Part shown: one piece after another, positions 2,136 to 58,355 of the stretch
How the letters are laid out: every line of letters begins with the position of its first letter
Numbering within the stretch: position 1 is the stretch's first letter
DNA from: Sandaracinaceae bacterium
GTDB taxonomy: Bacteria > Myxococcota_A > Polyangia > Polyangiales > Sandaracinaceae
DNA: 64,000 nt
Reading direction: 5' to 3'
Assembly: GCA_044220955.1 (NCBI GenBank)
Contig: JBGAQA010000012.1
Location: 19,305-83,304 of the forward strand
Notes under the pieces: generated by a model
What the model saw: only the letters and a program-made list of their open reading frames with translations
Told to the model about the DNA's origin: nothing
Database searches by the model: none
Made by a program: the position numbers and the translations under genes

Positions 2136-2298
2136 GGGGTCACTCCAGCACCCGCCAACTGCGCGCTTTCACAGCGCTCTGGCGGGTAGGTGCGCGTTTC
2201 GTGGAACACCGCTGCGCGACAGGGCGATCCGACGAAACGCGCACCTTGCCGCCAGTTCGCTTTCGTGTCGCGTAGTTGGGTACCCTTGGAGTGACCCC
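2136..2298 (+). mobile_element. 163-bp palindromic intergenic element, copy A (REPIN/MITE-like)
   Basis: Terminal IR GGGGTCACTCCA/TGGAGTGACCCC; inner IR GGCGGGTAGGTGCGCGTTTC/GAAACGCGCACCTTGCCGCC; same length as copies at 21602 and 58064. Mobility is inferred. Confidence 0.85.
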
Positions 2299-3153
2299 AT
2301 GTGCAGGCTGTTCGGGTTTCGGAGCGTGATCCCCAGTCAGATGCACCGCTCGCTGATCGCGGCGGAGAACGCGCTCGTGCGCCAGAGCGACAAGCACCCC
2401 GACGGCTGGGGCGTCGCCTACTACATCGACGGCTCGCCGCACGTGACGCGCAGCCCGGCGCACGCGCTGAGCGACGCGCTCTTCCATCGCGTGAGCGGCG
2501 TGGTGTCGAGCGAGACCGTGCTCGCGCACGTGCGCAAGGCGACGCAGGGGGCGCACACCGTGCTGAACTGCCACCCGTTCCAATACGGGCGCTGGGTCTT
2601 CGCGCACAACGGCGACGTGCCGCGATTCTCCGAGACTCATCGCGAGGCGCTGCTCGCGGAGGTGAGCCCGCGCCTGCGCCGCTTCGTGCTCGGCGAGACC
2701 GACAGCGAGACGATCTTCTTCATGCTGCTCACGCGCCTGGCGGCCGTCGGCCCGCTCGCCGCGCCGCGTGGCGCGGCCGAGGTGATGGACGCGCTCGCCG
2801 AGACCCTCGAGGAGGTGGACCGCCTCGCGCCGCAGTCGAGCGCAGCGCCCAACCTCCTGACGTGCATCGTCACCGACGGCGTGACGATGGTCGCGCACCA
2901 GGGCGGCAAGGAGCTCTTCTTCTCCACGTACAAGCGACGCTGCGCGGACCGCGACGCGTGCGGGCACCTCGCGCCGCACTGCGAGGCCGAGACGCTCACC
3001 GGGCAGGTGAACCACCTCGTGCTCTCGAGCGAGATCCTCCACGGCGAGAACGTGTGGACGCCGCTGACGCGAGGCGAGCTCGTGGGCGTCGACTGGCGGA
3101 TGCGCCTCGAGCGGCGCGGCGGAGACCGGCGGCGTCTCGCGATCGTCGCCTAA
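2299..3153 (+). CDS. Class II glutamine amidotransferase (YafJ/EgtC-like Ntn hydrolase)
   Basis: N-terminal MCRLFG (Cys2 nucleophile), HPDGWG, HVRKAT, NCHPF, FAHNG, GETDSE motifs. Confidence 0.92.
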   Translation: MCRLFGFRSVIPSQMHRSLIAAENALVRQSDKHPDGWGVAYYIDGSPHVTRSPAHALSDALFHRVSGVVSSETVLAHVRKATQGAHTVLNCHPFQYGRWVFAHNGDVPRFSETHREALLAEVSPRLRRFVLGETDSETIFFMLLTRLAAVGPLAAPRGAAEVMDALAETLEEVDRLAPQSSAAPNLLTCIVTDGVTMVAHQGGKELFFSTYKRRCADRDACGHLAPHCEAETLTGQVNHLVLSSEILHGENVWTPLTRGELVGVDWRMRLERRGGDRRRLAIVA

Positions 3154-3156
3154 TCT

Positions 3157-3194
3157 AGAGAGGCGATCCGCTGACAGATGGGGATCGCCTCTCT
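3157..3194. terminator. Hairpin between convergent genes, likely bidirectional terminator
   Basis: Perfect 13-bp stem AGAGAGGCGATCC/GGATCGCCTCTCT with 12-nt loop, between stops at 3153 and 3204. Confidence 0.65.
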
Positions 3195-3203
3195 CGTCCG
3201 CGC

Positions 3204-4199
3204 TCACGAGGGCGCGAGGATCTCGTCCGCGACGCCGTCGCCGAGCACCCGCCGCACGAACGCGCGCATCGCCTCGGCCTCCGCACCGCTGCGGAAGCGC
3301 TCGAAGTACGCGTCCTGCTCGTCCCAGGCGAAGTCGGGCATCACGCGCCCCTCGCGGAACAGGCGCATCGCCCGCCGCAGGTTCCACGCGAGGAACGGAC
3401 GGAAGTTCGGCTCCCGCTCGAAGTACCCGGGCTCGCTCGCCTCCGCCGCCATCCCGACGGCGATCGCGTAGACGCTGAGCTCGATCACGCCGTCCACGGT
3501 TCCGCGCCAGCCCTCGGTCCACAGGCCACTCCGCTGGCGATCGACGCCGACCTCGGCGCCGTTCGTGTAGGCCACCCACTCGTCCCAGACGTAGAGCGGC
3601 CTGTCGTCCCAGTCGCTCGCGCCGGTGACGTAGAGATCGAAGCGCGACCAGCGCAGCGAGGCGGGCACGTAGGCGCCCACGTCGCTCTTGCGCATGCGCG
3701 GCTCGCGCACGAGGCAGGCGCGCCCGTCCATCACGTAGAAGCCGTTCGCGCCCTGGCCGGTGTCATCGAGCGTGTTGCGGATGTACGCGTGGATGCCGTG
3801 CGTGGCCTCGTGCCCGTACGTGACCGTGTCGGCGTCGTAGTAGGTGTCCCCATACGCCGGCGTCTGGTGCCGCACGATGTCGGTGAGCCGAGCGCCCCAG
3901 CGCGCGTCGCTCGAGGTGCGCAGCTCGCCGAGCGTGAGACAGCGCAGCTCCCCGAGGGGGTCCGGTGGTGGCGGTGACGGCGGCGTGCTCGCGTCCGGCC
4001 CGGGCTCCGCGATCGGTGGCGCCGCCGCGTCCTCGGGGTCCGGCCCGGGGAGGAACGCGTCCGGCAGCACCGGCGCGTTCGCGCCTGCGTCGCCGGGATC
4101 GGCGGCGTCGGCGAGGGGCCGCGGCCGCGTCCGCTCCGCGCGGCAGCCGAGCGCGCTCGTCACGAGCAGGACGAGCAGGACCCGAACGAAGCGCGTCAT
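3204..4199 (-). CDS. Lipoprotein, putative zinc metallopeptidase
   Basis: Lipobox-like SALGC, Pro/Asp linker, HEATH (HExxH) followed later by DEWVAY. Confidence 0.6.
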   Translation of the reverse strand: MTRFVRVLLVLLVTSALGCRAERTRPRPLADAADPGDAGANAPVLPDAFLPGPDPEDAAAPPIAEPGPDASTPPSPPPPDPLGELRCLTLGELRTSSDARWGARLTDIVRHQTPAYGDTYYDADTVTYGHEATHGIHAYIRNTLDDTGQGANGFYVMDGRACLVREPRMRKSDVGAYVPASLRWSRFDLYVTGASDWDDRPLYVWDEWVAYTNGAEVGVDRQRSGLWTEGWRGTVDGVIELSVYAIAVGMAAEASEPGYFEREPNFRPFLAWNLRRAMRLFREGRVMPDFAWDEQDAYFERFRSGAEAEAMRAFVRRVLGDGVADEILAPS

Positions 4200-4272
4200 C
4201 GCGGCTCTGGTGTCCGCGACTCGTGCTCACCGAGGTGCGTACGCTCACGCTCCCGGCGTCCGCGCGTCCGCG

Positions 4273-4668
4273 TCAGTCGAGGTGCTCGACGTCGGCCGGC
4301 AGGCCGACCCACGCGTGCTTGCGCGCCTCGTAGACCGAGACCGTCGGCGCTGGAAACCTCGGGTCGGCGAAGGCTCCGAGGGCGACCGCGATGCTGCCCG
4401 GCGCCCGATCGAGCAGGTAGTAGACGGTCGACCCGCACGTGGGGCAGAAGTGGAAGTGGATCGCGTTCCCGCTGTCCGCGACGCGCGTGTACGCGCTGGC
4501 GGTCCCCGTGATGCGCACGTTCTCCCTCGGGAAGCGCGCCTGCGCGCCGAACGCGCTGCCGGTGCGCCGCTGGCACTCCAAGCAGTGACAGATGGAGATC
4601 CGGATCGGCTCGCCGTCCGCCTCGAGCGAGAGCCGACCGCAGGAGCAGCGTGCGCTTCGGGTCGTCAC
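4273..4668 (-). CDS. GFA/CENP-V family Zn-binding protein
   Basis: CSCG, CHCLECQRRTGSAF, FCPTCGS motifs; GTG start chosen at 4668. Confidence 0.92.
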   Translation of the reverse strand: MTTRSARCSCGRLSLEADGEPIRISICHCLECQRRTGSAFGAQARFPRENVRITGTASAYTRVADSGNAIHFHFCPTCGSTVYYLLDRAPGSIAVALGAFADPRFPAPTVSVYEARKHAWVGLPADVEHLD

Positions 4669-4681
4669 CGGACGCGCGCCG

Positions 4682-5431
4682 TCAGTGGCCGTGGCCATGT
4701 CCGCCGCCCCCGCCGTGCCAGCGCGGACCCTCACCGCCGTGGCGGCCGTGGTCCCAGTGGCCGCGCCCCTCGTCCACGCGCTCGTCTCGATCCCCGACGA
4801 TGACCACACCGGGACGAGGCGGAGCCGGGCCGACGATCACCACACCGGGCGGACCGGGCGGAGGTGGCGGGACGAGGAGAACGGGCGGCGGCGCCTGCGG
4901 CGCGACGAGCACGACGCCGGGGCGGGGCGGCTCGAGCACCGCGACGCCTGGGCGCGTGGGTGCCACGACCTCGACGCGCGCTTGCGGCGCTGCGGGCGTC
5001 GCGACGTGAACCGTGGCCGGCGCCGTCCCCACGACGACCGGCGTGGCCGGAGCGAGTACCACGAACACCGGCGCCGACGCGTGCACGGGCGCGCCCGCGA
5101 CGACGGCGTCGATCTCGATCGGCCCCACCTGCGGCGCGACCGGGATCACACCCACGAACGTCGCCGTCGGCTCGTCCCACGTGAGCGGCGCGTCGTGCAC
5201 GGCCCCGTCGACACCCGGGACGTGGACGATCACGGTCGTGCTCGGCCCGCGCGCGGTGCTCGTCGCGATCGGGTACGCGACGAGCTGACCGTCGGTGTGC
5301 GTGACGATCTCGAGCGGCTGCGTGCCGACCGTGACGACGACACCGCCGTGCTCGGCGGGCGGCAGCGGCGGCGGCTCCGGGTCGCACATCCACAGGAACG
5401 ACATCGCGGCGGCCATGAGGGTGAGTCGCAT
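4682..5431 (-). CDS. Pro-rich exported hypothetical protein with Gly/His-rich tail
   Basis: Hydrophobic N-terminus, PxVVxV repeats, C-terminal GHGHGH. Confidence 0.6.
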   Translation of the reverse strand: MRLTLMAAAMSFLWMCDPEPPPLPPAEHGGVVVTVGTQPLEIVTHTDGQLVAYPIATSTARGPSTTVIVHVPGVDGAVHDAPLTWDEPTATFVGVIPVAPQVGPIEIDAVVAGAPVHASAPVFVVLAPATPVVVGTAPATVHVATPAAPQARVEVVAPTRPGVAVLEPPRPGVVLVAPQAPPPVLLVPPPPPGPPGVVIVGPAPPRPGVVIVGDRDERVDEGRGHWDHGRHGGEGPRWHGGGGGHGHGH

Positions 5432-5541
5432 GCCTCTACAGTGCCGCGCCGGTGGCCGGCGGTCTCACCAAATCGTCGCGGCGTGACGCGATGACACGGC
5501 CCAGCGCACCGATGCCTGTACTATTGCCGCGAGCCTGGGCG

Positions 5542-6795
5542 ATGCAGCGAACGATCGACGTCGGTGTGATCGGCACGGGCACCGCGGGCTCCGCGGCCGC
5601 GCTCTTCCTCGCGCGCGCGGGCCACCGCGTGAGGCTCTTCGAGAAGGTCGACGACCCGGGCGCCGTCGGGGCCGGGATCGTGCTCCAGCCCACCGGACAG
5701 CTCGTGATGAGCGAGCTCGGCCTGGCGGGCCCCGTGCTCGAGCGCGGCGCGCGCCTCGATCGGCTGCGATGCGAGACGACGAAGAAGCGCACGCTCGTCG
5801 ACCTCGAGTACGCGATGATCGACGCGGGCCTCTTCGGCCTCGGCCTGCACCGCGGCGTCCTCTTCGTGACGCTGCTCGAGGCGGTGAAGAGAGAGCCCGG
5901 CATCGCGCTGGAGCTCGGCACCGAGATCGTCGCGCTGAGGACGGCGGGAGAGAAGCGCGTGCTGAGGGACGAGCGCGGCGAGGAGCACGGGCCCTTCGAC
6001 CTCGTCGTCGTCGCGGACGGCGCCGGCTCCAACCACGAGGACGACCGCCCGCTGGCGCGCCGCGTGACGCCCTACGCCTGGGGCGCGCTCTGGGCCATCG
6101 TGCCCGACCCGGACCGCGTCTACCGCGGGATGCTCTACCAGGTCGTGCGCTCGAACGCGGTGATGCTCGGCTTCCTGCCGACGGGCGCCGGGCCGGACGA
6201 TCCTACGCCGACCGTCAGCCTCTACTGGAGCCTGCGGGCCGACCGCATCGACGCCTTCCGGACGGGCGACTTCGGCGCGTGGAAGCGCGAGGTCCTCGGG
6301 CACGACCCGCGGGCGGGCTTCATCCTCGACGCCCTGCCGAGCGCAGAGCGCCTGCTCTTCGCGAGGTACCGCGACGTGGTGATGCGTCGCTTCACGGGAC
6401 CGGCGACGGTGTACGTGGGCGACGCGGCGCACGCGATGAGCCCGCAGCTCGGCCAGGGCGCGAACCTCGCGCTCTACGACGCGAAGATCCTCGGCGAGTG
6501 CTGCGCCGCCGAGCCGGACGTGCCGCGGGCGCTCGCCCGCTACGAGCGCGAGCGGCGCGCGCACCTCGGCTTCTATCAGTTCGCGACACGCTGGCTGACG
6601 CCCTTCTTCCAGGGCGACGGGTCGATCTTCGGCACGCTGCGCGACCTCTTCATGCCCATCGGCCTCGCGATCCCTCCTGTCCGCCGGCAGATGGTGCGCA
6701 GCATGCTCGGCATCAAGCGCGGCATCGTCCGCAGGTCGCTGCCGCTCGAGCCGCTCCGGCGCGCCCTCGCGGCCGGTGCGACCGTGGCGCGCTGA
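5542..6795 (+). CDS. FAD-dependent monooxygenase (UbiH/salicylate hydroxylase-like)
   Basis: GxGxxG (GTGTAG), VVADG, GDAAHAMSPQLGQGAN motifs. Confidence 0.92.
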   Translation: MQRTIDVGVIGTGTAGSAAALFLARAGHRVRLFEKVDDPGAVGAGIVLQPTGQLVMSELGLAGPVLERGARLDRLRCETTKKRTLVDLEYAMIDAGLFGLGLHRGVLFVTLLEAVKREPGIALELGTEIVALRTAGEKRVLRDERGEEHGPFDLVVVADGAGSNHEDDRPLARRVTPYAWGALWAIVPDPDRVYRGMLYQVVRSNAVMLGFLPTGAGPDDPTPTVSLYWSLRADRIDAFRTGDFGAWKREVLGHDPRAGFILDALPSAERLLFARYRDVVMRRFTGPATVYVGDAAHAMSPQLGQGANLALYDAKILGECCAAEPDVPRALARYERERRAHLGFYQFATRWLTPFFQGDGSIFGTLRDLFMPIGLAIPPVRRQMVRSMLGIKRGIVRRSLPLEPLRRALAAGATVAR

Positions 6796-6826
6796 GGCAC
6801 GGCGACGCGAGCACCCGACGCTCGGA

Positions 6827-7309
6827 TCAGATCCCGATGCGTGCGCGCAGGTGCGCGAGCAGGCCGGCGGAGGCGCGCTCGCAGATCTCGAACACCCGGG
6901 CGTACTCGCCGGAGTAGTACGGGTCCGGCACCTCGTCGTGGTCGGCCCCGGCCTCGAACGAGCGGAAGAGACGGACCTTCTCGCGATGCGCGTCGCTCGC
7001 GGCCAGCCGCACCACGTTCGCGTGGTTGCTGCGGTCCATCACCAGCACGTGGTCGAAGCGCCCGAGGTCCGCGCGCACGATCTGCCGCGCGCGATGGACG
7101 ATCTCGACGCCGCGCGAGGACGCCAGCGCTCGGGTCGGCGGGTGCGCGAGCTCGCCCGCGTGCCAGTCGCCGGTGCCGGCGCTGTCGATCTCGAAGTGCG
7201 CCTCGAGGCCGGCCGCGCGGACGTCGCGGGCGAACACGGCCTCCGCGGTCGGCGAGCGGCAGATGTTGCCCAGACAGACGAAGAGGACCGACACGGGCGG
7301 AGCCTTCAT
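6827..7309 (-). CDS. Low-molecular-weight protein tyrosine phosphatase
   Basis: VCLGNICRSP P-loop, DSAGT, DPYY; ATGA overlap with upstream gene. Confidence 0.95.
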   Translation of the reverse strand: MKAPPVSVLFVCLGNICRSPTAEAVFARDVRAAGLEAHFEIDSAGTGDWHAGELAHPPTRALASSRGVEIVHRARQIVRADLGRFDHVLVMDRSNHANVVRLAASDAHREKVRLFRSFEAGADHDEVPDPYYSGEYARVFEICERASAGLLAHLRARIGI

Positions 7310-8043
7310 CGGAAGACGCCCGGGAGCACACCGCCGAGCCCGAGCGAGCCGGCGAACGCGAGCACCAGCGCGAACACCAGGGCCGCGATGCAGAACGACA
7401 CGATGCCGATCGAGACAAGCGGCGTCAGGATCGCCACCACCAGCGCCCGCTGATCGTCGAGCCCGTGCGCGCCGCGCGCCGCGCCGTAGCAGGCGAAGCC
7501 GGCCCAGATCACGAACGCCATGCGCACACCGAGGTGGACCATCGAGCCGACGAAGGGCACGAACCCGAGGAACAGCGCCGGGAGCAGCCAGAAACGGATG
7601 GCCGACGTGTAGAGCATCGCGTGGAACGAGCGCCGGAAATCGCCGACGCCGCCGAGCAGCGCGGCGATTCCGTGAAAGATCACGGCGTGCACGAGCTCGA
7701 CGCCGACGGAGCCGAGCAAGAGCACGAACGGCATGGCGCCGACCATCCCGCACATCGCCCCGGTGCCGATCGCGCGCAGGTCGTCCGGGAGCGACGAGCC
7801 GAACGCGAACGGGACGACGGCCAGACAGGGCGAGAGCAGGACGAAGGGGGCCCAGCCGACCGCCGCGGTCAGCAGCGCGAAGCTCACGCCCGACGAGAGA
7901 TCGCGCTCGCCCTCGGCGGCACCGATGCGCGTGAACGTGCCGACGGGATCCGTCGTCGCGCCCGACACGGTCGCCCAGAAGCGCGCGAGCACGCCCCGGC
8001 TCGGGTCTTCCCACGGGATCGTCGTCGCCACGCCGGGCGTCAT
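7306..8043 (-). CDS. YIP1-like membrane protein
   Basis: IPWE N-terminal motif, about 5 hydrophobic segments, HG-LGG pattern. Confidence 0.65.
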   Translation of the reverse strand: MTPGVATTIPWEDPSRGVLARFWATVSGATTDPVGTFTRIGAAEGERDLSSGVSFALLTAAVGWAPFVLLSPCLAVVPFAFGSSLPDDLRAIGTGAMCGMVGAMPFVLLLGSVGVELVHAVIFHGIAALLGGVGDFRRSFHAMLYTSAIRFWLLPALFLGFVPFVGSMVHLGVRMAFVIWAGFACYGAARGAHGLDDQRALVVAILTPLVSIGIVSFCIAALVFALVLAFAGSLGLGGVLPGVFR

Positions 8044-8202
8044 ACCACGCGACGGATCGCCCGCGACCGTGTGCTCGACTGTGCGATGCGCACGCAGCCG
8101 CTCACGAGAACACGACGCTTTTCGATCGCCCGATCGCGGGGGCGCGGATCATCGGTGATCCCCCTCTTCTTCTTTCGATCGCGATTCGTAGGATCGCGTC
8201 CC

Positions 8203-8445
8203 ATGCTGCGTTGCTCGTTCTGTGGTCGCGACCTGGCCTACGTGCATGGCCACGCCGCATGCATCCACCCCGAGTGCCCCGTGCGCGGGCTGAGCCAGGC
8301 CGACTGCTGCGCCGGCGAGGAGATGGCGTCGTGCACCGCGCACGTCGTCCCGCGCACCCCGATGGCCGACCCGACAGCCGGAGGCGTCCAGAGAGCGGAC
8401 GCGACACAATTGTGTCGGCCCGGCTTCGCCGGGCACTCCGGCTGA
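8203..8445 (+). CDS. Small Cys/His-rich putative metal-binding protein (80 aa)
   Basis: MLRCSFC...VHGHAACIHPEC...DCC; TAGGAT box 8 nt upstream; fills an intergenic gap. Confidence 0.6.
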   Translation: MLRCSFCGRDLAYVHGHAACIHPECPVRGLSQADCCAGEEMASCTAHVVPRTPMADPTAGGVQRADATQLCRPGFAGHSG

Positions 8446-8559
8446 TACCCGCGGGATCTTCCAGGTCACGCGCGAGGCGAGCGAGCGCGGCGAGACCGTC
8501 GCGGTCGACGTCGTGCCGATGCCCGCCGCTCGGCGTAGCGTCAGCTCGCGGCGCGCGCG

Positions 8560-9477
8560 CTACGCCTTCGGGCCGAAGGCCGTGACCACGTAGCCGCCGC
8601 TCTTGTCGTCGTGCGCGAGCTCGAGCAGGCCGCGCTTGTGAGCGTCCTCGAGGATGTCCGAGAACGTACGGTAGCCGTGGAAGCGCTCGCTGAACTCGGG
8701 GCGCTTGCGCTTGATCGTCTGCTTCACCAGCGAGCCGTGGAGCGCGCCGTCGCGATCCTGGAAGAGGGCCTCGACGACGTCGAGGATGAGCTCGATCGCC
8801 TCGCGCTGCCGATCCGCGAGCGGCTTGCCCGTCGCCTCGTCGGCCGGCACGCCGGGGCTCGTGCCCGTCGGCGCGGCCACGGCGGCCATCTCGGCGCTCT
8901 CGGAGGTCGTCGCGCTGGACGACGGCGTCTTGGTCCGCTGCTGAGCCGCGCCCTTCGGCGCCGCGATCGTGCCGGCCTCGCTGCGTCGCATCGAGCCGCG
9001 CGCGCGCACGAGGTCGTCGTAGTAGATGAACTCGTCGCAGTTGTCGATCAGGAGGTGGCTCGAGCTCGACTTCACGCCGAGGCCGATGACGCGCTTGTCG
9101 TTCTCGCGCAGCTTGCTCACGAGCGGCGAGAAGTCGCTGTCGCCCGAGATGACGACGAAGGTGTCGACGTGGCGCTTCACGTAACAGAGGTCGAGCGCGT
9201 CCACGACGAGGCGGATGTCGGCCGAGTTCTTCCCCGAGTAGCTGACGTGGGGGATCTCGATCATCTCGAAGGCGGCCTCGTGCATGCCGCGCTTGGCGTG
9301 CTTGTAGCGCTCCCAGTCGGCGTAGGCCTTCTTCACGACGACCTTGCCCTTGTCGAGCAGGCGCTCGAGGCAGAGCTGGATGTCGAACTCGTCGTGGCGG
9401 GCCTCGCGCACACCGATGGCGACGTTCTCGTAGTCGCAGAAGATCGCCATGTTGGGTGCTTCGTCGCGGTCGCTCAT
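8560..9477 (-). CDS. NYN (LabA/DUF88) domain protein with C-terminal OST-HTH/LOTUS domain
   Basis: FCDYEN, GKNSADIRLVVDA, SGDSDFSPLV, and C-terminal KQTIKRKRPEFSERFHGYRTFS. Confidence 0.93.
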   Translation of the reverse strand: MSDRDEAPNMAIFCDYENVAIGVREARHDEFDIQLCLERLLDKGKVVVKKAYADWERYKHAKRGMHEAAFEMIEIPHVSYSGKNSADIRLVVDALDLCYVKRHVDTFVVISGDSDFSPLVSKLRENDKRVIGLGVKSSSSHLLIDNCDEFIYYDDLVRARGSMRRSEAGTIAAPKGAAQQRTKTPSSSATTSESAEMAAVAAPTGTSPGVPADEATGKPLADRQREAIELILDVVEALFQDRDGALHGSLVKQTIKRKRPEFSERFHGYRTFSDILEDAHKRGLLELAHDDKSGGYVVTAFGPKA

Positions 9478-9522
9478 TGGCGCGGGAGGATAGCTCAAGA
9501 CTCGTCCCCGATCGGGGTCGGG

Positions 9523-10506: not shown

Positions 10507-10510
10507 CGCT

Positions 10511-12457: not shown

Positions 12458-12545
12458 GATCCCTCCGGCGTCCGACACGGCGGGCACCGGGATCTTGGAC
12501 ATCCAGGCCGTGCCGCCGTTCCGGCGCACGTGATAGCGTCGCCAC

Positions 12546-12818: not shown

Positions 12819-12819
12819 G

Positions 12820-13618: not shown

Positions 13619-13683
13619 GAATCGCGCATCTAGCCGCCGGAACGGAGTGAAAGCGAGGACTTGCGACCCCGTGGAGTGACCCC
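13619..13683 (-). repeat. Solo half-copy (one arm) of the 163-bp element
   Basis: Reverse complement reads GGGGTCACTCCA-N33-GGCGGCTAGATGCGCGATTC. Confidence 0.85.
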
Positions 13684-21601: not shown

Positions 21602-21764
21602 GGGGTCACTCCAGGGGGTCCCAAGTACGCGGTTTCCCAGCGATCCGGCGGCTAGGTGCGCGTTTCGCACAATCTCGGCCGCGGAATGCGGGATCCGACG
21701 AATCGCGCACCTTGCCGCCGCATCACAATGAAATCAGGTGGTTGGGACCCCGTGGAGTGACCCC
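21602..21764 (+). mobile_element. 163-bp palindromic intergenic element, copy B
   Basis: Same terminal IR, extended by GGGGTCCCAA/TTGGGACCCC, and same inner IR; between convergent genes. Confidence 0.85.
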
Positions 21765-41457: not shown

Positions 41458-41493
41458 CGCGGCTCAGTATCGCACGGGTGCTACGATCCGCCG

Positions 41494-41901
41494 ATGGCCT
41501 TGCGACGCGCGATCCCCGCTTCCCTCTTCCTCTTCGGCGTGCTCGCCGGCTGCGCCGGCACGAGCGCGCCCGTCGACGCCGCGAGCGCGGCCGACGCGGG
41601 CGCGACGACCGACACGGGCGCGGCCGACGTGGGCGCGACGACCGACACGGGCGCGACGACCGACGCGGGCTCTTGCGACCCACAGCCGACCGACCTCTCG
41701 TCGATCGACGCGACCTGCGGCGCCGGCACCAGCGCCTGCCCGAGCGGCTACGTCTGCCAGGCCTTCTCGGGGGCAATCCTGACGCAGTCGTGCCAGATCC
41801 CGTGCGAGCCCGGCGGCTGCCCCTGTCCGGCCACGACGGCGTGCCAGATGCACTCCGACAAGACGGCCGTGCCCTGGTACCAGTGCGACCCGACGCCCTG
41901 A
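41494..41901 (+). CDS. Small Cys-rich lipoprotein with ADAGATTDTG repeats
   Basis: Lipobox LAGC; 33-bp coding repeat near 41585-41670; Cys-rich C-terminal domain. Confidence 0.8.
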   Translation: MALRRAIPASLFLFGVLAGCAGTSAPVDAASAADAGATTDTGAADVGATTDTGATTDAGSCDPQPTDLSSIDATCGAGTSACPSGYVCQAFSGAILTQSCQIPCEPGGCPCPATTACQMHSDKTAVPWYQCDPTP

Positions 41902-42011
41902 CGACGCGCCGAGGACGTGCAGACCCACGTTCGCTCTCCAGGGCTGCCGCGCGGCACGCGGGCGATGATCACGGGCACATCGAGGAGGCGATGGGATCGG
42001 GGCCGCCGACT

Positions 42012-42075
42012 GAATCGCGCACCTACCCCCAGGACGCCTGTGAATCCAGCCGGTTGCGGGGCGTGGAGTGACCCC
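42012..42075 (-). repeat. Solo half-copy (one arm) of the 163-bp element
   Basis: Reverse complement reads GGGGTCACTCCA-N32/33-GGGGGTAGGTGCGCGATTC. Confidence 0.82.
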
Positions 42076-42095
42076 GATCAGTGGGCGCGCCCCGA

Positions 42096-47937: not shown

Positions 47938-48003
47938 GTTCGGATCTCCCTCGTTGAGGAGGCCGGCATACCGCGCCCCGCGCGCGCGCGGCCGTGCGCG
48001 TGG

Positions 48004-48461: not shown

Positions 48462-48465
<4 letters not shown>
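48004..48465 (-). CDS. Small membrane-anchored hypothetical protein
   Basis: GTGA overlap with kinase stop; single TM. Confidence 0.55.
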
Positions 48466-50132
<1,667 letters not shown>

Positions 50133-50139
50133 CACAGGC

Positions 50140-50487: not shown

Positions 50488-50539
50488 CGAGACCGTCCGA
50501 CCTTACCATGCGGTGCGAGCCGCTCTCGCCGTGCGCTTC

Positions 50540-51427
50540 TCAGCCGAGGACCCGTAGGCGCCCCTTGCCATCGGGCGAGAGCTGGGTCGCCGGAGCGGGC
50601 CGCTCGGCGACCCCGTCCGGGGCGATCCCGAGCCGCTGCCAGAGGTCGCGGTCGAGCAGGTGCGTCGCCCGCACGTTCCCGAGCGCGGCGAGCATGCTCT
50701 CCTTCACCTGTGGAGCCGTGTCTTCGAGCCGTGTGAGCAAGGCCTTCACCTCCTTGCGCATGAGCTCGTCCTGGGAGCCGCAGAGGTCGCACGGCAGGAT
50801 CGGGAAGCGCATGAGCTCCGCGAAGCGCGCGATGTCCTTCTCGGCGCAGTACATCAGCGGGCGGATCACCACGTTGCGCCCGTCGTCGCTGCGCAGCTTC
50901 GCCGGCATCGCCTTCAGCGACCCCGTGAACATGAGGTTCAGCATGAGGGTCTCGAGCGCGTCCTCGCGGTGGTGCCCGAGCGCGATGCGCGTGCAGCCGA
51001 GCTCCTCGGCCAGGTTGTAGAGCACGCCGCGGCGCAGGCGCGAGCAGAGGGAGCAGTACGTCTTGTCCCCGTCCGTCCCGAGCTTGTCCGCGACGATGGA
51101 GTAGGTGTCCTCCCGCACGATGCGGTGGGCGTAGCCGTGCTCGCGAAGCCAGCCCTCGAGCGGCGCGCCGTCGTAGCCGGGCTGTCCCTGGTCGAGGTGG
51201 ACGGCCACGATCTCGAACTTGACCGGCGCCTTGCGGCGCAGACGCTCGAGCAGGTGCAGCATCGTGTAGCTGTCCTTGCCCCCGGAGAGGCAGGCCATGA
51301 CGCGATCGCCCTGCCGGACGAGGTCGAAGTCTGCGATGCAGCGCCCGACCGCGCGCTGGAGGTCCCGTTCGCTGCGCTCGAGCTCGTCCACGGCGGCCAG
51401 CCTGACGTCCGGGGCCGTGCGCGGCAA
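50540..51427 (-). CDS. ttcA: tRNA 2-thiocytidine synthetase
   Basis: SGGKDSY, CSLCSRLRRG, GHHRED, PCDLCGSQ. Confidence 0.95.
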   Translation of the reverse strand: MPRTAPDVRLAAVDELERSERDLQRAVGRCIADFDLVRQGDRVMACLSGGKDSYTMLHLLERLRRKAPVKFEIVAVHLDQGQPGYDGAPLEGWLREHGYAHRIVREDTYSIVADKLGTDGDKTYCSLCSRLRRGVLYNLAEELGCTRIALGHHREDALETLMLNLMFTGSLKAMPAKLRSDDGRNVVIRPLMYCAEKDIARFAELMRFPILPCDLCGSQDELMRKEVKALLTRLEDTAPQVKESMLAALGNVRATHLLDRDLWQRLGIAPDGVAERPAPATQLSPDGKGRLRVLG

Positions 51428-51478
51428 CCCCGTCCATTCCGAGGTAGATCACGGGCGCGCCAGCGTAGGAGCACCGTC

Positions 51479-52522
51479 ATGCCGCGTCTCGCACTCACCT
51501 TGGTCCTCGTCTTGCCCGCGCTCGTCGCCGCCGGGTGCCGCCAGCGCAACGACCTGCCAGCCACGATCCGCTGCACGCCTGGAGAGACCGTCGAGATCGG
51601 CTGCGCCGCCGGCTGCGGCCTGGGCATGTGCCAGGGCGATCCCACGCTGCGCTTCTGTGACGGAACGCTGAGCGCGAGCGAGTGCGGCCACGCGACCGAC
51701 ACGACGACGTTCGCGATGATCGACGACACGTCGTGCGGCGGCTTGTGCCCGTTCGGACGCATCACCTGCCCGCCCTCGGGCGCCGTGACGGTCGTCCCCG
51801 GCACCGCGAGCGGCAGCAGCGCCTCGTGCGCCTGGGCGGCCGACAACCTCGGCGTGCTCCCGCCCGGGGGCCGCGGCGCCGAGATCATCACGTGCACCGC
51901 GGGCGCCCCCGTGCGCGTCGGCTGCTCGGACGCGTGTGGCATCGGGCACTGCGCCTCGAGCACCGCGCGCATCCGGATCTGCGACGGCGTCGTCACCACG
52001 GGCGACTGCCAGAGCGGACCGCTCGGCCACTGGGTGCTCGACGTGACGACGGCGTCGAGCGGCAGCGACTGCGACTTCCGCTGCCCCGAGGCCGTCGTGA
52101 CCTGCCCGAGCTCGGGAATGCTGACGGTGTCCCCGTCGGCGATCGGCAGCGCGGCCGACTACTGGTGTCAGTGGGAGGCGGTCGAGCCGCCCCACCACGC
52201 GGACGACGTGGTGTCGTGCTCGCCCGGCGCACGCCTGGTGGTGGGCTGCGCGGCGGGCTGCAACGCGGGGGCGTGCGTAGGCCGCGGAGGCATCCGCGTG
52301 TGCGACGGCGGCATCACCGCGGCGGAGTGCCGCACCACGACGACGCGCCTCGGCGACTCGTTCGGCAGCTCCTCGTGCGACGACGCGTGCCCGGAGACGG
52401 TGGTGGTCTGCCCCGCGTCCGGCGCGCTCACCGTGGTGTCCGGCGCGAGCTTCTCGAGCGCCGACCCGGCCGAGGGGTTCGCGTGCGACTGGGTCGTGCG
52501 CGCGGCCGGCCTCGGCGAATAG
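51479..52522 (+). CDS. Lipoprotein with three tandem Cys-rich domains
   Basis: Lipobox AAGC; three ~100-aa repeats C-x-x-G...GC...C..G.C...CDG...CP...CP.SG...C.W. Confidence 0.85.
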   Translation: MPRLALTLVLVLPALVAAGCRQRNDLPATIRCTPGETVEIGCAAGCGLGMCQGDPTLRFCDGTLSASECGHATDTTTFAMIDDTSCGGLCPFGRITCPPSGAVTVVPGTASGSSASCAWAADNLGVLPPGGRGAEIITCTAGAPVRVGCSDACGIGHCASSTARIRICDGVVTTGDCQSGPLGHWVLDVTTASSGSDCDFRCPEAVVTCPSSGMLTVSPSAIGSAADYWCQWEAVEPPHHADDVVSCSPGARLVVGCAAGCNAGACVGRGGIRVCDGGITAAECRTTTTRLGDSFGSSSCDDACPETVVVCPASGALTVVSGASFSSADPAEGFACDWVVRAAGLGE

Positions 52523-52537
52523 GAGCGCGTCGCCGGC

Positions 52538-52873
52538 TCACGCCTCGCGGGGCCGCGAGGCGACCCCACGGTCCTGCCGCTCGTCGCGCCGTCGGCGGCG
52601 CCGGTACCCGCGATGAACGAACCCGCCCTCCCCGCCGGTCCCGGCGAACGCGAAGAACCACGCGATCACGCAGAGCACCGGGTTGGTGTCCCAGTAGACG
52701 CTCGTCGCCAGGATCGCCACGAGCAGGTGCGGGCAGAAGATCCAGCCCAGCCACGAGAGGACGCCGAAGGGCCCGCCCACGAAGAGCAGCGTGATCCGCG
52801 GGAACACCACCAGCCCGACGAGGATCAGCCAGCCCCACTCGGCGTGGGCGGCGAAGAAGTCGGCGTGGTGCAT
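52538..52873 (-). CDS. Small membrane protein
   Basis: FPRITLL...WLGWIFCPH...YWDTNP hydrophobic protein. Confidence 0.75.
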   Translation of the reverse strand: MHHADFFAAHAEWGWLILVGLVVFPRITLLFVGGPFGVLSWLGWIFCPHLLVAILATSVYWDTNPVLCVIAWFFAFAGTGGEGGFVHRGYRRRRRRDERQDRGVASRPREA

Positions 52874-52922
52874 GACTGCGGGTGCCTACGCACACGGGCC
52901 TCGGTCGCCACGCGCGCCTCGC

Positions 52923-53543
52923 TCAGCGTCCCCAGCTAGCCTGCACGCGCCCGATCGCCAGCGCGTGCTGTCGCAGCATGAAGCGCGCGAGCGCGCCGGT
53001 CCCGCCCGCCGGCACGCCGAGCGTCGCCGTGTCCAGCGCGTACACGGTGATCTCGTAGCGGTGCGCAGGCCCGGGGGGCGGGCACGGACCGCCGTAGCCG
53101 TTGGCGCCGAAGTCCGTGTAGGCCTGCACGGTGCCGGCGGGCATCCCACCCTCCGCGCTCGAAGCGCCCTCCACGAGCGAGGTCGTGGTCGTCGGGATGT
53201 CGGTGACGATCCAGTGGAAGAACCCGACGCCCGTGGGCGCGTCCGGGTCGTGCATGACGATCGCGTAGCTCAACGTCCCAGCGGGGCCCGCGGTCCACGT
53301 GAGCGCCGGGCTCTGGTTGCCGCCGGTGCAGCCGAAGCCGTCGAACACCTGCGCGGCGGCGAACCGGCCCTCGGTCGTGCCGCCGAGGGTGACGGTGATC
53401 GACTCCGGCGCGGTGATCGGCTCGCGCAGCATGTCGCCGCCCGAGGTGGCCGCGGCGCTCGACGCCGCGCTCGAGTCCGGACAGCTCGAGCCGCACGCGG
53501 ACAGGATGAGGAGGAGGATACCGACCGAGATCGCCTTCTGCAT
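52923..53543 (-). CDS. YbhB/YbcL family (PEBP/RKIP-like) lipoprotein
   Basis: GGNQSPAL, HDPDAPTG.GFFHW, YGGPCPP, HRY. Confidence 0.93.
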   Translation of the reverse strand: MQKAISVGILLLILSACGSSCPDSSAASSAAATSGGDMLREPITAPESITVTLGGTTEGRFAAAQVFDGFGCTGGNQSPALTWTAGPAGTLSYAIVMHDPDAPTGVGFFHWIVTDIPTTTTSLVEGASSAEGGMPAGTVQAYTDFGANGYGGPCPPPGPAHRYEITVYALDTATLGVPAGGTGALARFMLRQHALAIGRVQASWGR

Positions 53544-53642
53544 GCGCGCGATGGTGCGCGCGCCGCGCGAAAAGGGGAAGGCGCTGCGCGGGCTGGATCT
53601 CGACGCGGGAGCGCGTAGACCCGGACGCAGGTCACCGGCCGC

Positions 53643-55733
53643 ATGAGCCTCACGCGCGAGATCACCCTCTGCTTCCCGAGCCTGACCGAGGCCCAGCAGA
53701 CGCGCCTCGCGCCCTATCTCGAGCGGGTGTCGGTGGCCGAGGGGCAGACCCTGGTCCGCGAGGGCGCGCACGACTGCGACGCGTTCTTCGTGGTCGAGGG
53801 CCGCGCGCGCATCTCGCGCGCCGGGCTGGAGGTGTCCGTGCTGGAGGCGGGCGATCACTTCGGCGAGCTCGCGCTGCTGGCCGGCCGGCCCCGCGGCGCC
53901 ACCGTGCACGCGAGCAGTGGCCTGATTCTCCTGCGCCTGCGCGCGGAGCGCTACGCCGCGCTGTCTCGCGAGGAGCCGGACCTGGCGATCGCGCTCGTCC
54001 ACGCGCTCGTGGACGGGCTCGGCGACACGCTCTCCGAGATGACCGAGCGCGTGAACGTGCTCGTGCGCGAGCGCTCGCTGCCGCGCCGCTCGAGCGTCGA
54101 GGTGACCGTCGACGGCAAGCGGGTGCGCGCCGCGACGGGGACGCCCGTCGGCGATCTGCTCCCCCGCGAGGTCGAGGGGGCGCAGGTCGTGGCGGCCCTC
54201 GTCGATCGACGCATCGTGGGCCTCGACACGCCCCTCGCGTCGGACGCGACCGTGGTGTCCCTGGACACGCGGCACCTCGAGGGCGAGCGCATCCGGCGCG
54301 CGACCCTCGGTCTCGTGCTGCTCGCCGCCGCGCGCGCGGTCGTGCCAGGCGCGGTCGAGCGCCTCGGCCCCTCGCTCGGGGCGGCCCAGCTCGTGGAGCT
54401 GTCCCCCGGCCCGCACGACACGGCAGCGCTGGCCGCGCAGCTCACGGCGGAGATGCGGCGCATCGTCCTCTCGGGCATGCCGCTCCTGCGCGAGTGGTGG
54501 ACGGTCGAGGAGGCGCGCGCGCACTTCGCGGAGCTCGGGGACGTCGCCGCCGCCGACCTGCTCGACGTATCGCGGGAGCCGATGGTGCCGCTCGTCTCGC
54601 TCGACGGCGCGTACGCCATCGGCTTCGGGCCGCTGCTCCCGAGCGCCTCGCGTGCCGGCGAGTTCGAGGTCCGCGCCGACGACGGGCGCCTCCTGCTCGT
54701 CACCGGCGACGCGAACGACGACGCGCCTCGCTCGGCTCGGCCGGCCGCCGAGGCGATGACGGACGAGCACGCCCTCTGGCTGCGCTCGCTCGGCATCACG
54801 AGCGTCGGCGCCTTCGGACGCGCCTGCATCGCGGGCGACGTCGCGCAGATCATCCGCATCTCGGAGGGCTTCCACGAGAAGCGCCTGTCCCGCATCGCCG
54901 ACGAGATCGTGCAGCGCGAGGATCGCGTGCGCGTCATCTGCGTCGCCGGACCGAGCTCGTCCGGCAAGACGACCTTCATCAAGCGCCTGCACGTCCAGCT
55001 CGAGGTGGTGGGGCTGCGCCCGATCGGGATCTCTCTGGACGACTACTACGTCGATCGCGCCCGCACCCCGCGCGACGAGAACGGAGAGTACGACTTCGAG
55101 GCATTCGACGCGCTCGACGCGGGCCTGCTCCAGGACGAGCTCGCGCGCGTCCTGCGGGGCGAGACCGTGCGCCTCGCGCACTACGACTTCGTCCACGGCA
55201 AGAGCGTCCCCGGCGGTGGTCCCGAGGTGACCCTCGGCCCGAACGACGTGCTCGTCATCGAGGGCATCCACGGCCTCAACCCCGCGCTGCTCGCCGATCA
55301 CGTCCCCGAGCGTGCGCTCTACCGGATCTTCCTCTGTCCGCTCACCGGCCTGCCGCTCGACGCGCTCACCCGCGTGTCCGTCTCGGACCTGCGGCTCTTG
55401 CGCCGCATCGTGCGCGACCGGCACGGCCGGTCCCAGACGGCCGAGGGCACGATCCGCCGCTGGGCGTCGGTGCGCGCGGGCGAGCGCAGACACATCTTCC
55501 CGCACTTCGATCGCGCGGACACCGTCTTCGACAGCGCGCTGGTGTACGAGCCCTCGGTGCTCAAGGTCTACGCCGAGCGCTATCTGCTGGAGGTGCCGCC
55601 GGGCAGTGACGCGTTCCCGACCGCGTTCCGCCTGCTCCAGCTGCTCGAGCGGTTCGTGTCGATCTACCCCGAGCACGTGCCGACGACGTCGATCCTGCGG
55701 GAGTTCATCGGCGGCTCGAGCTTCCCCGGCTGA
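53643..55733 (+). CDS. cNMP-binding domain fused to ThrRS-N-like/uridine kinase
   Basis: cNMP motif GDHFGELAL...PRGATV; P-loop AGPSSSGKTT, SLDDYY, EGIHGLNP, RRIVRD, SILREFIGGS. Confidence 0.87.
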   Translation: MSLTREITLCFPSLTEAQQTRLAPYLERVSVAEGQTLVREGAHDCDAFFVVEGRARISRAGLEVSVLEAGDHFGELALLAGRPRGATVHASSGLILLRLRAERYAALSREEPDLAIALVHALVDGLGDTLSEMTERVNVLVRERSLPRRSSVEVTVDGKRVRAATGTPVGDLLPREVEGAQVVAALVDRRIVGLDTPLASDATVVSLDTRHLEGERIRRATLGLVLLAAARAVVPGAVERLGPSLGAAQLVELSPGPHDTAALAAQLTAEMRRIVLSGMPLLREWWTVEEARAHFAELGDVAAADLLDVSREPMVPLVSLDGAYAIGFGPLLPSASRAGEFEVRADDGRLLLVTGDANDDAPRSARPAAEAMTDEHALWLRSLGITSVGAFGRACIAGDVAQIIRISEGFHEKRLSRIADEIVQREDRVRVICVAGPSSSGKTTFIKRLHVQLEVVGLRPIGISLDDYYVDRARTPRDENGEYDFEAFDALDAGLLQDELARVLRGETVRLAHYDFVHGKSVPGGGPEVTLGPNDVLVIEGIHGLNPALLADHVPERALYRIFLCPLTGLPLDALTRVSVSDLRLLRRIVRDRHGRSQTAEGTIRRWASVRAGERRHIFPHFDRADTVFDSALVYEPSVLKVYAERYLLEVPPGSDAFPTAFRLLQLLERFVSIYPEHVPTTSILREFIGGSSFPG

Positions 55734-55832
55734 CAGGAGTGCTCGCCGCGGAGGACCCGGACGGGAGCGGGCGCAGCCCGCGGACGGAAGGGGCCGGAGA
55801 GGCGAGCCGACGCGATCGGCGCGGCTCCGGCC

Positions 55833-56933
55833 TCAGGTGCCGGCGCCGATGGCGTCCTGCACGCGCGCGAATCCCTCGGCGCGCGCGCGGACGAGCAGCC
55901 CGCGCGCGATCCGTCCCGGCGTGTCGGGTCCTCCGTAGACGAAGCCCGTGTAGAGCTGCACGAGGCTCGCGCCCGCCAGGATCCGCTGCCACGCGTCGTG
56001 GTCGCTCTCGATGCCGCCGACCGACACCAGCGTGAGGCGATCGCCCACGCGCCCACGCAAGAGGCGCAGAACCTCGAGAGAGCGCTCCTTCAGCGGCGCG
56101 CCGCTCAGGCCTCCGACGCCCGCGCGCTCGACCGCGTCCTTCGCGCTCGTCAGGCCGCTCCGCGCGATGGTCGTGTTCGTCGCGACGATGCCCGCGAGGC
56201 CCAGCTTCTCGGCGAGGTCGGCGACCGCGAGCACGTCGTCGTCCGCGAGGTCCGGCGCGATCTTCACGCAGAGCGGCGGGCGGTGCGCGCTCTCGGCCGT
56301 GCTCTCGTCGATCGCCTCGCCCACGGCGCGCAAGAGCGGCCCGAGCTTCTCGACCGACTGCAGGTCGCGCAGCCCGGGCGTGTTGGGCGAGCTCACGTTC
56401 ACCACGACGTAGTCGGCGTGCGGCGCGAGCAAGCGCGCGCTCTTGACGTAGTCGGCGATCGCGCCCGTCTCGGGCACGAGCTTGGTCTTGCCGATGTTCA
56501 CACCGACGACGCCGCGCCTACGGTCCCGGACGCGCAGGCGCGGCAGCGCGCCGGCCGCGCCGCCGTTGTTGAACCCGAGCCGGTTCACGAGCGCCCGATC
56601 GGCCGGGAGGCGGAACATCCGCGGCTGCGGGTTGCCGGGCTGCGCCTCGCCCGTCAGCGTGCCGACCTCGACGAACCCGAAGCCGAGCGCGAGCAGCGCG
56701 TCGAACCCGACCGCGTCCTTGTCGAAGCCGGCCGCGAGCCCGACCGGCGTCGGGAACGTCAGCCCCATCGCCTCGACGCGCAGCGCCGGCTCGCGCGGTG
56801 GCCCGTAAAGCGCGGAGAGCATCGCGCCCCCGAAGGGCATCGCCTCCGCGAAGCGCAGGGCGCCGAACGCGATGTGATGGGCGCGCTCGGGCGGAAGAGA
56901 GAAGAGGAGCGGACGCGCGATCGAGTACAGCAA
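55833..56933 (-). CDS. pyrD: Quinone-dependent dihydroorotate dehydrogenase
   Basis: [36 protein letters not shown]. Confidence 0.96.
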
Positions 56934-56980
56934 CGCGCGCGGAAGCTAGCGCGCGAGCGGCGCGATCGCGAGGGCCGCGA

Positions 56981-57988
56981 TCAGGCCAGCGTCCGGAGGA
57001 GCGCCTCGCGCTCCGTGGCGTCCGGGAGCCCGAGCGCCCCGCGCGTGTCCGCGTCCGCGTCGTCATCGCCGACGCGCCACGCCTCGAGCACCGCCTGCCG
57101 CTGGGCCTCCGTGTCGCGCGCGGCGCCGGGCGGGAGCGCCTCGAGCGCCCAGTCGTGGATGGCGAAAGAGAGCAGCGCGTGCCGCGCCTCGTCGGCCGCG
57201 ATCTCGGCGTAGGCGGCGCGGACGTCGGCATCGCGCGCCCAGCGCGCCTGCCGCGCGGCGACGAGGGCCGCGTAGGCCTCGCGCACGCAGCCCTCGACCG
57301 CGTTGTCGGCGGCCATGGCCCGCAGATCACGAAGCGCCGCCCGCGCACGGCGCACCTCCGGCACCGCGCCGCCCCGGCGAGCCGCCAGCCCGGCGACGGT
57401 CCGAGCGTGGCGGCGCTCGTCTTGCGCGGCGCGCGCCGCGGCGCGAACGAGCCGCGCAGGCGCGCCGTGCAGGGCGAGCTCGATCCCCAGCTCGTCGAAG
57501 GCCGGCACGCTCGCACGCTCGAGGTAGGCGGCGCGCGCGAGCCACCCCGCGACGCCGCCGCCCGCGTCCGCGAACGCGAGGCCCGAGGGCGCCCGGCCGC
57601 CGACGCAGAGGTGCGCGTACGAGCAGGTCAGCGTGTCGACGCCGCCCGCGCTCGCGACGCTGCACGTCACGTTCGCGTACTGCGCGCCGGCGATCCCGCC
57701 GTCGCTCCCGCTCCCGTCGAGCCCGCCGTCGGCCGGGCCGTACCCGTCGAGCCCCAGACAGACCACGCGACACGAGCTGCTGAAGTCGCCCGCGTCGTTC
57801 GCGAGCGCGGCGCGCTGCGTCGCGTCGATCGCGTGCGTGGTCATCGCGAACGGCTGACCGCACGAGCCGCCGGTGCACGTGCACGCGGACGAGGACACGA
57901 GCAGCACGAGCCCACCCGCAGGGGCCGCGAGGATCGGCAGCCCGAGCGCGATGCGGCGCAGGAGAAGACGCGCGTGTCGACCACCCAT
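56981..57988 (-). CDS. Ferritin-like domain protein (myxobacterial type)
   Basis: LERASVPAF, DERRHA, NAVEGCVRE, DEARHA; GGAGG RBS. Confidence 0.85.
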   Translation of the reverse strand: MGGRHARLLLRRIALGLPILAAPAGGLVLLVSSSACTCTGGSCGQPFAMTTHAIDATQRAALANDAGDFSSSCRVVCLGLDGYGPADGGLDGSGSDGGIAGAQYANVTCSVASAGGVDTLTCSYAHLCVGGRAPSGLAFADAGGGVAGWLARAAYLERASVPAFDELGIELALHGAPARLVRAAARAAQDERRHARTVAGLAARRGGAVPEVRRARAALRDLRAMAADNAVEGCVREAYAALVAARQARWARDADVRAAYAEIAADEARHALLSFAIHDWALEALPPGAARDTEAQRQAVLEAWRVGDDDADADTRGALGLPDATEREALLRTLA

Positions 57989-58063
57989 GCAGACCTCCGC
58001 CCGCCATCGTACCGGAGTCGTGCGGGCTCAGGAGGCGGACCGGTGGGGTCAGGGCGGACCGGT

Positions 58064-58226
58064 GGGGTCACTCCAGGGGGTCGTAACTACCGAGAACCAC
58101 TGCGAACTGGCGGCAAGGTGCGCGATTCGTCGGATCGTCTTCCGACACAGGGCGATTCCGTGAACTGCGCACCTTGCCGCAGGAGCGCTGTCGTTTCGCG
58201 GGATTGGATGGGCCTGGAGTGACCCC
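58064..58226 (-). mobile_element. 163-bp palindromic intergenic element, copy C (inverted relative to A and B)
   Basis: Same terminal IR and length; reverse complement shares ACAGCGCTC and CGATCCGACGAAnCGCGCACCTTGCCGCCAGTTCGC with copy A. Confidence 0.85.
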
Positions 58227-58295
58227 ACTCGACACCCACTCGGTCCGAAGCTCACCCCCGACCTTCGGTCGTGGCTGACTCACGCCAGACGGCGA

Positions 58296-58355
58296 GGGGT
58301 CGTAACTGCCGAGAACCGCGGCGAACCGGCGGCCAGGTGCGCATTTCGTCGGATC
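58296..58355 (+). repeat. Degenerate half-copy directly repeating the first arm of copy C
   Basis: GGGGTCGTAACTGCCGAGAACC...GGCGGCCAGGTGCGCATTTCGTCGGATC versus 58077-58136; terminus decayed (TCACGCCAG upstream). Confidence 0.8.

Follow-up and report, generated by a model that had tools for sequence, protein, structure and literature searches.

A 163-bp inverted doublet in a Sandaracinaceae genome as the probable gene-less terminal-repeat pair of a TIRtron, with a predicted IHF site in each arm

Three elements of exactly 163 bp, each made of two inverted arms, lie dispersed in a stretch of 64,000 nucleotides from a Sandaracinaceae bacterium (assembly GCA_044220955.1, contig JBGAQA010000012.1, positions 19,305 to 83,304; this whole stretch is hereafter called the window), which raises the question of what kind of element this is and by which means it acts. 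A first-pass annotation had proposed a non-autonomous mobile element moving as a single-stranded DNA (ssDNA) hairpin or, alternatively, a structured RNA or a protein-binding scaffold. The explanation that we favour on balance is that the element is the end-repeat pair of a TIRtron, in which each arm acts as a double-stranded protein-binding module bent by integration host factor (IHF) and not as one half of a hairpin.

The RAYT-like HUH transposase gene flanked by the element, for which the first-pass annotation had suggested a search, is present in the source genome (G000; 7.5 Mb, 72.5% G+C, 301 contigs, 88% complete). On its contig C77, two inward-facing arms at 64132 (plus strand) and 64978 (minus strand) form an 847-bp pair around the gene of a 238-aa Y1 transposase (PF01797), with dnaK on one side and a gene with an RNA recognition motif (RRM) on the other. 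The protein carries the motifs H-A-H (HUH) and YVELNP (Y---NP) and matches NF047646 with E = 4e-17 at 62 bits, below the 80-bit cut-off of that model. Its closest solved relative by sequence and fold is E. coli TnpA-REP (4ER8), the top Foldseek match of its AlphaFold model (pLDDT 83; E = 1e-8). The C-terminus of this model consists of three short helices, and a Pfam search down to E = 1 returned Y1_Tnp only and no helix-turn-helix (HTH) domain. No arms stand beside the second Y1/RAYT-like gene of G000 (C231, L002:1054-2238), and many congeners carry several distant Y1 genes resembling it.

The ends of the arms, GGGGTCAC, fit GGGGWSAS, in line with the type of motif that the first-pass annotation had named for some RAYT groups. 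TIRtrons, as described by Di Nocera et al. (2013, PMC3733652), consist of a RAYT-like Y1 gene between long inverted GGGGWSAS repeats, and their terminal inverted repeats (TIRs) occur singly or as dimers; the element, which the first-pass annotation did not recognise as a described family, is thus of a kind known since 2013. Because the same arm flanks the single HUH/Y1 gene on C77, we regard the family as TIR dimers of a TIRtron, and we are highly confident that the 163-bp element is a gene-less pair of terminal repeats of this one TIRtron elsewhere in the genome and is linked to its TIRYT enzyme. According to Quentin et al. (2018, PMC6006769), most TIRYTs fall in TnpA-REP subclass 2.1, which equals RAYT group 1, described as the largest RAYT group by species (PMC5581495). 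No bench study of TIRYT enzymes was found in the literature searched, in which the term is rare.

How large the family is could be read from the whole genome, which holds, as had been anticipated, many copies: 104 exact occurrences of the outer 12-mer GGGGTCACTCCA against 1.6 expected (8 against 0.19 in the window). An arm was defined as the outer 11-mer, with one mismatch allowed, plus an inner TGCG core at offset 54-55. By this rule G000 has 95 arms, 87 in the standard register and 8 one base short; one of them (C226:10780) is probably a chance match, leaving about 94. They form 33 convergent pairs (163 bp in 18 cases, 145 in eight, 162 in five, 174 and 847 in one each), so that the distances between inverted pairs peak at 163, 145 and 162 bp; all but the 847-bp pair around the transposase gene, that is 32 pairs, are gene-less. 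Twenty-nine of the 95 arms are unpaired, 3 of these near contig ends, and short forms of 52, 59 and 84 bp keep both outer motifs and one IHF-like core. The sequencing runs in which this DNA occurs, none of them listed as RNA, are metagenomes of sludge and bioreactors that stem from 8 studies.

Each arm (about 66 bp) is composed of the outer GGGGTCACTCCA at positions 1-12, an IHF-consensus-like core at 21-33 and an inner motif at 46-65, with fixed spacing between the motifs and bases in between that drift freely. The 145-bp class of G000 (e.g. C199:61802 and C235:138641) has a different inner motif, together with a small perfect palindrome around an 11-nt centre. In one 67-bp arm of genome G011 (L011:2202-2268), GGGGTCAC stands inverted at both ends with an IHF-like core between; the idea that the inner motif is generally an inverted outer motif was dropped because it is clear in this arm and loose in G031 only. 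Two arms at G004:C21:24145-24678 (L039) enclose about 400 bp of other DNA, possibly a cargo-carrying form.

What the core represents is suggested by its consensus, Y-A-A-N4-Y-Y-G-A-W-W, which is the reverse complement of the IHF consensus WATCARNNNNTTR (PMC8421141). At arm position 21 the arms of G000 match it at 6.6 of the nine positions on average, IHF binding in this lineage being a prediction from sequence, and 49 of 87 arms reach at least 7/9, compared to 0.05% of random sites. Y21, A22, A23 and G30 are kept in 85-86 of the 87 arms. The core is better still in genome G137, where 13 of 14 arms have 7-9 of 9 matches. G000 encodes IhfA (over cut-off) and an IhfB-like protein. Among 99 homolog loci, homologs at least 42% identical yielded 40 distinct inward GGGGWSAS end-repeats, and 28 of these have at least 6 IHF matches at a start of 20-22 (shuffled: mean 2.6, maximum 8), counts that are overstated because kin are not independent. 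In a quick tree the close homologs form a clade of 46 rows (SH-aLRT 95), within which outer and inner motifs vary by lineage, the inner one changing by sub-branch, while the IHF-like core is kept in these 28 of 40 end-repeats. We therefore consider the core of the arm to be probably an IHF site.

A large sister TIRYT clade from metagenome contigs (L130-L183) has near-invariant ends GGGGTCAGACTCGATTGAT, often in tandem, and no IHF site at offset 21. Three perfect IHF sites lie outside arms in G000, all non-coding (C119:933-945, C10:2376 and C301:78963), the first directly after a tRNA-Ser gene, as at integration sites. A sigma-54 promoter accompanied by an IHF site was rejected as a candidate: its -24/-12 consensus, GG-N10-GC, occurs in 0 of 95 arms.

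The three full copies in the window were confirmed, with the layout 12-33-20-33-20-33-12 and AA at arm positions 22-23. Of the three additional solo arms that had been reported, the one at 13619 stands, the one at 42012 is one base short with a 32-nt gap, and the third, around 58296-58355, has no outer 12-mer and is a decayed direct duplicate of the copy 3 left arm (53/60 identical). The features are the following.

2115..2139, plus strand: tandem duplication across the copy 1 left junction, period 13, flank plus GGGG
2136..2298, no strand assigned: copy 1, 163-bp doublet of two inverted arms
2156..2168, plus strand: IHF-consensus-like core of the copy 1 left arm (arm positions 21-33), 6/9 matches
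2266..2278, minus strand: IHF-consensus-like core of the copy 1 right arm, 6/9 matches
13619..13683, minus strand: solo arm between convergent genes, IHF-like core 13651-13663 (7/9)
21602..21764, no strand assigned: copy 2, 163-bp doublet between convergent genes, IHF-like cores 21622-21634 (6/9) and 21732-21744 (9/9), junction duplications at both ends (periods 20 and 13)
42012..42075, minus strand: solo arm, one base short, IHF-like core 42044-42056 (7/9), junction duplication of period 18
58064..58226, no strand assigned: copy 3, 163-bp doublet, IHF-like cores 58084-58096 (5/9) and 58194-58206 (6/9), left-end junction duplication of period 19
58296..58355, plus strand: decayed direct duplicate of the copy 3 left arm, outer 12-mer gone

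Copy 1 begins 16 nt after the metH stop codon, and on the right it runs up, with no gap, to the start codon (ATG) of a gene for a class II glutamine amidotransferase (GATase_4). The GGAG at this end of the copy, 7 nt 5' of that ATG (window 2287-2301), may by now act as the gene's ribosome-binding site.

Whether the arms act as duplex DNA can be judged from the lengths of the doublets. Among the matches listed for nine genomes these are 132, 141-145, 152, 162-165, 172-174, 177-178, 183-185 and 197 bp, and the 24 values fall in a 10.5-bp phase (R = 0.67, P < 1e-4), as do, among the same matches, the 18 within-genome length classes (P = 0.0005). Excluded from this test were a length of 247, which has a third arm inside, and lengths of 534, 847 and 852, which enclose cargo or the gene. 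Steps of one helical turn favour a bent duplex, since nothing would make the loop of a hairpin lengthen by whole turns. Along the 163-mer, A/T-rich positions recur about every 10 bp, with a strongest period of 9.75. Such phasing could also belong to a bendable surface that is wrapped by the transposase or by HU, with YAA-N4-YYGAWW not a specific IHF site, a reading that keeps the transposase link and the double-stranded geometry. It would account for the A/T peaks running through the whole 163-mer including its centre, where no third IHF site was found, for the two IHF consensus positions that are usually unmet, and for the weaker in-phase match at arm position 51-52 (mean 4.2-4.9 of 9). However, only the 21-33 block keeps the near-invariant Y-A-A and G, at one offset clade-wide, and this block comes nearer to the full IHF consensus in other genomes, so that we think this alternative unlikely, while taking it seriously.

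A second alternative, along the lines of one option in the first-pass annotation, is a classical REPIN-like element that moves as an ssDNA hairpin recognised by the HUH enzyme, its fixed lengths reflecting few founders. The copies are indeed predicted to fold into strong hairpins, several G137 doublets have near-perfect inner stems and within-copy likeness, and ssDNA is the known chemistry of the enzyme family. Yet complementarity is no higher within a copy than between arms taken from different copies: likeness in the spacer (positions 13-45) is 51.7% between the two arms of one 163-mer and 53.0% between copies (P = 0.77), and in genome G004 the values are 0.536 and 0.559, again with no excess. 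Covariation is equally lacking in the 18 163-mers of G000, with 76.2% of cells paired compared to 76.9% after shuffling and 21 compensated pairs compared to 26.2. No two of the 87 spacers are identical, and columns more than about 3 nt apart are no longer linked, which implies that there is no master sequence of the kind on which REPIN populations are described to centre (bioRxiv 10.1101/2021.07.10.451892). Moreover, no short palindrome with a 5' GTAG foot was found in the arm profile, and about 28 arms are solo. This hairpin reading therefore appears rather improbable to us, and of the options first proposed the protein-binding scaffold, with an IHF-consensus site and helical phasing, fits better.

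The distribution of the family is patchy. Of 61 related genomes, four are rich in the 12-mer (104, 31, 19 and 7 copies) and the others have it 0-2 times. All four hold a close homolog of the transposase with arms or a one-base variant beside the gene, and the congeners G001, G002, G003 and G005 (0-1 motif) have distant Y1 matches only (E at least 2e-8). With a looser pattern (GGGGWSAS, 11-13 nt, IHF-like core), 7 of 301 genomes of the phylum gave at least 9 matches, compared to 0-2 in controls. Four of the five pattern-rich genomes checked for the protein encode a single close homolog, next to which lies the repeat variant of that genome, on both sides in G137, G295 and G310 and, among the matches listed, on one side in G231; G175 has a more distant homolog only. 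Two close TIRYT homologs, L015 (G009) and L016 (G059), contain an in-frame stop, and in G009 the arms persist and are tandemly amplified.

Mobility is suggested by orthologous sites, which in congeners were empty where this was testable. The solo arm at 13619 is missing between the same two genes in G005 and G002; at the copy 1 site, G001 has metH next to the amidotransferase gene with no element between, and in G002, G003 and G005 the two genes are 1.8-4.2 kb apart; and the dnaK-RRM junction is empty in G003 and in G004, whose TIRtron is on another contig. Copies 2 and 3 are uninformative in this respect because their flanking genes are not adjacent in the congeners, and at the 80-90% identity or so of the congeners compared, exact insertion points are unreadable. 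No occupied site common to G000 and G004 was found. At window 41475-42092, the flanking genes are about 45 bp apart in G004, which has neither the small gene 41494-41901 nor the solo arm there; the solo arm at 42012 may mark an accessory-gene insertion.

Possible traces of activity are also seen at the outer ends. Direct duplications of at least 9 bp span the outer junction at 28 of the 95 outer ends in G000, compared to 2.4% of random sites, 0.5% of shuffled flanks and 0 of 29 inner ends. The repeated stretch takes in 6-17 nt of flank and the first bases of the element, ending 2-8 nt inside the terminus in 23 of the 28, with no evident preferred dinucleotide at the outer break of the 28. Target-site duplications are absent, the longest match between left and right flank being 0-3 nt in 33/33 pairs, and a classical MITE of a DDE transposase was rejected on this ground. 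In sequencing run X13, a contig (depth 4) over copy 1 shows four substitutions within the element, an unchanged 134 nt beyond the element and its junction repeat, and a junction duplication of period 11 instead of 13, while run X2 is identical to the window there; this single contig hints at repeated events at one end.

The placement of the elements brings in a third alternative, compatible with the explanation that we favour, in which the arms are kept mainly for the host, as IHF-binding elements of chromosome architecture or of transcription and supercoiling at gene 3' ends like BIME-1/RIB of E. coli, and the transposase has only seeded them. In a crude gene prediction for G000 (6217 genes), convergent genes flank 41 of the 58 elements that could be classified, whereas 19% of gene pairs are convergent. 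Of 26 solo arms, 24 turn their outer end to a gene 3' end; survival bias may contribute to this placement. In addition, arms supply 15 of the 65 non-coding sites of G000 with 8-9 of 9 IHF matches, motif and phase are kept while the sequence drifts, and the inter-REP sequence of BIME-1 is reported to bind IHF (PMC2817692). Against a primary host role, however, the patchy distribution follows the transposase, no site was found occupied in both G000 and G004, and the transposase gene is itself flanked by this module; we judge such a role slightly less probable than the hairpin.

Two further readings can be set aside. A structured non-coding RNA family, to which the stable folds and the position at gene 3' ends could point, is very improbable, as there is no covariation, the window has 0 Rfam matches at the gathering threshold (copy 1 gave three sub-threshold miRNA hairpin models only) and identical sequence forms the end of the transposase gene. 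Least credible of all is a double NrdR operator in each arm that would tie the element to deoxynucleotide supply: nrdR is present and CAA-N4-YYG is similar to the C...G at the core of NrdR boxes, which have a three-turn spacing and conserved GC pairs (PMC9110341), but a matrix of 31 native boxes upstream of ribonucleotide reductase genes (24 loci of the host's family, the upstream region of G000's own reductase being cut off by a contig start) refutes it computationally, with mean scores of 14.3 for native boxes and -7.5 for arms, a box pair above threshold in 0 of 87 arms, the palindromic A20 and T31 in 1/87 arms each, and a second box without its G. The native paired NrdR-like boxes upstream of reductase genes (family f1, L194-L219) read CCACnAnnnnTnGTGG and lie 30-33 bp apart.

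How the module might work follows from the geometry of IHF, which is reported to introduce two kinks separated by 9 bp, with WATCAR in between (bioRxiv 10.1101/382655). This would place the bend near arm position 31-33, in the middle of the arm, where a U-turn would bring outer and inner motifs together. We propose that IHF would fold each arm into such a U-turn, with the bend of about 160 degrees expected of it, setting both motifs side by side for the cognate TIRYT enzyme, which would open the DNA, nick one strand within or just after GGGG (near the step from GGGG to TC), link itself to it via its tyrosine and join the cut end to a nearby or distant site. Where cutting and rejoining abort close to an end already present, junction duplications would result, and productive events would yield new solo arms and doublets without target-site duplication. 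The helical length steps would leave both bent arms on the same duplex face, ready for synapsis.

A number of observations weigh against this model, besides the relatedness that inflates the cross-genome IHF counts. Characterised TnpA-REP and IS200/IS605 enzymes are described to act on single-stranded DNA (PMC8266576). Each full copy folds as a strong hairpin (z = -9.0, -10.8 and -6.4), a consequence of the presence of two copies of one motif, and in G137 the two arms of a copy resemble each other more than they do arms from other copies (0.584 compared to 0.506, P = 0.02, n = 7), a difference due to nearly perfect inner stems in part of the doublets; such stems could be the sign of a doublet formed recently through the copying of one arm. 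Regarding IHF, seven consensus positions are mostly met in G000 and two mostly unmet (T29 in 19/87 arms, T32 in 10/87), there is no true A-tract, positions 42-43 being merely A/T-rich, and a distant TIRYT clade has no excess of IHF sites at the offset (19/93 repeats compared to 14.4 shuffled), so that IHF is not a general need of these enzymes. The 8 global length classes among the matches listed phase weakly (P = 0.02 at a fixed 10.5, 0.055 with a free period), and lengths of 145, 177-178 and 197 sit 2-4 bp off phase. Relatives show fewer junction duplications (4 of 46 ends), and slippage during replication could account for such duplications. Finally, no excision or empty allele was found in the read data, nor was a joint across an element seen in the metagenome contig lay-outs at 85% likeness, which mostly stem from other organisms. 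Taking both sides together, we still incline to a double-stranded mode of action.

More tentatively, this whole HUH/Y1 clade may have left the ssDNA-hairpin mode of IS200/IS605 and RAYTs for an IHF-dependent, helically phased double-stranded transpososome like those of DDE/integrase systems, with ends that are freely shuffling three-part modules (cut site, IHF bend and lineage-specific inner operator) and which, as they spread, place dozens of IHF bends where convergent genes meet. This bears on how enzymes known to need single-stranded hairpins can use long inverted repeats and, if true, would mean a new host-factor-dependent mode for HUH transposition, with the elements as an origin of bends in the chromosome and of rearrangements at 3' ends. 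The family supplies a substrate design (a predicted host-factor site, a cut expected 2-8 nt inside the end, and the spacings likely to matter), and its natural enzyme-operator pairs with differing inner motifs suit swap tests.

Compared to known systems, the REPINs of group 2/3 RAYTs in E. coli and Pseudomonas are likewise non-autonomous inverted extragenic doublets with one cognate HUH gene per genome that is flanked by the repeat; in contrast, the family described here lacks a GTAG foot, a short REP palindrome, a master sequence and arm-arm covariation, and its arms are three times as long. In the literature consulted, IHF appears with RAYTs only through BIME-1/RIB of E. coli, which as reported (PMC2817692) shares with the present family a RAYT-associated repeat, IHF binding (predicted here) and a location at transcription-unit 3' ends, but has one IHF site between two short REP hairpins, whereas here a site is predicted in each long arm and none in the centre. 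With TnpA-REP subclass 2.1/RAYT group 1, as described, the family has in common the class 2 Y---NP signature, a C-terminal extension with a conserved serine, the lack of REP hairpins, GGGG[AT][CG]A[CG] ends and a single copy of the gene. The 20 TIRYTs of that subclass are all reported to carry a C-terminal HTH (Bac_DnaA_C, HTH_23 or HTH_28; PMC6006769), which the C77 protein lacks, and group 1 is described as rarely tied to abundant repeats (PMC5581495), compared to about 94 arms here. The published TIRtrons (PMC3733652) share the Y1 gene, long inverted GGGGWSAS repeats and moderately abundant single and dimeric TIRs; the available part of that account gives no internal anatomy, IHF site, helical phasing, junction duplications or myxobacterial example, and mentions IHF in the title of a reference only. 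No link between IHF and TIRs was found in the literature searched, although the figures and Additional file 5 of PMC3733652 and subscription papers may bear on novelty. So far as the literature searched shows, what the present family adds to these TIRtrons is an IHF-consensus site at a fixed offset, length steps of about 10.5 bp, junction duplications and a placement between convergent genes.

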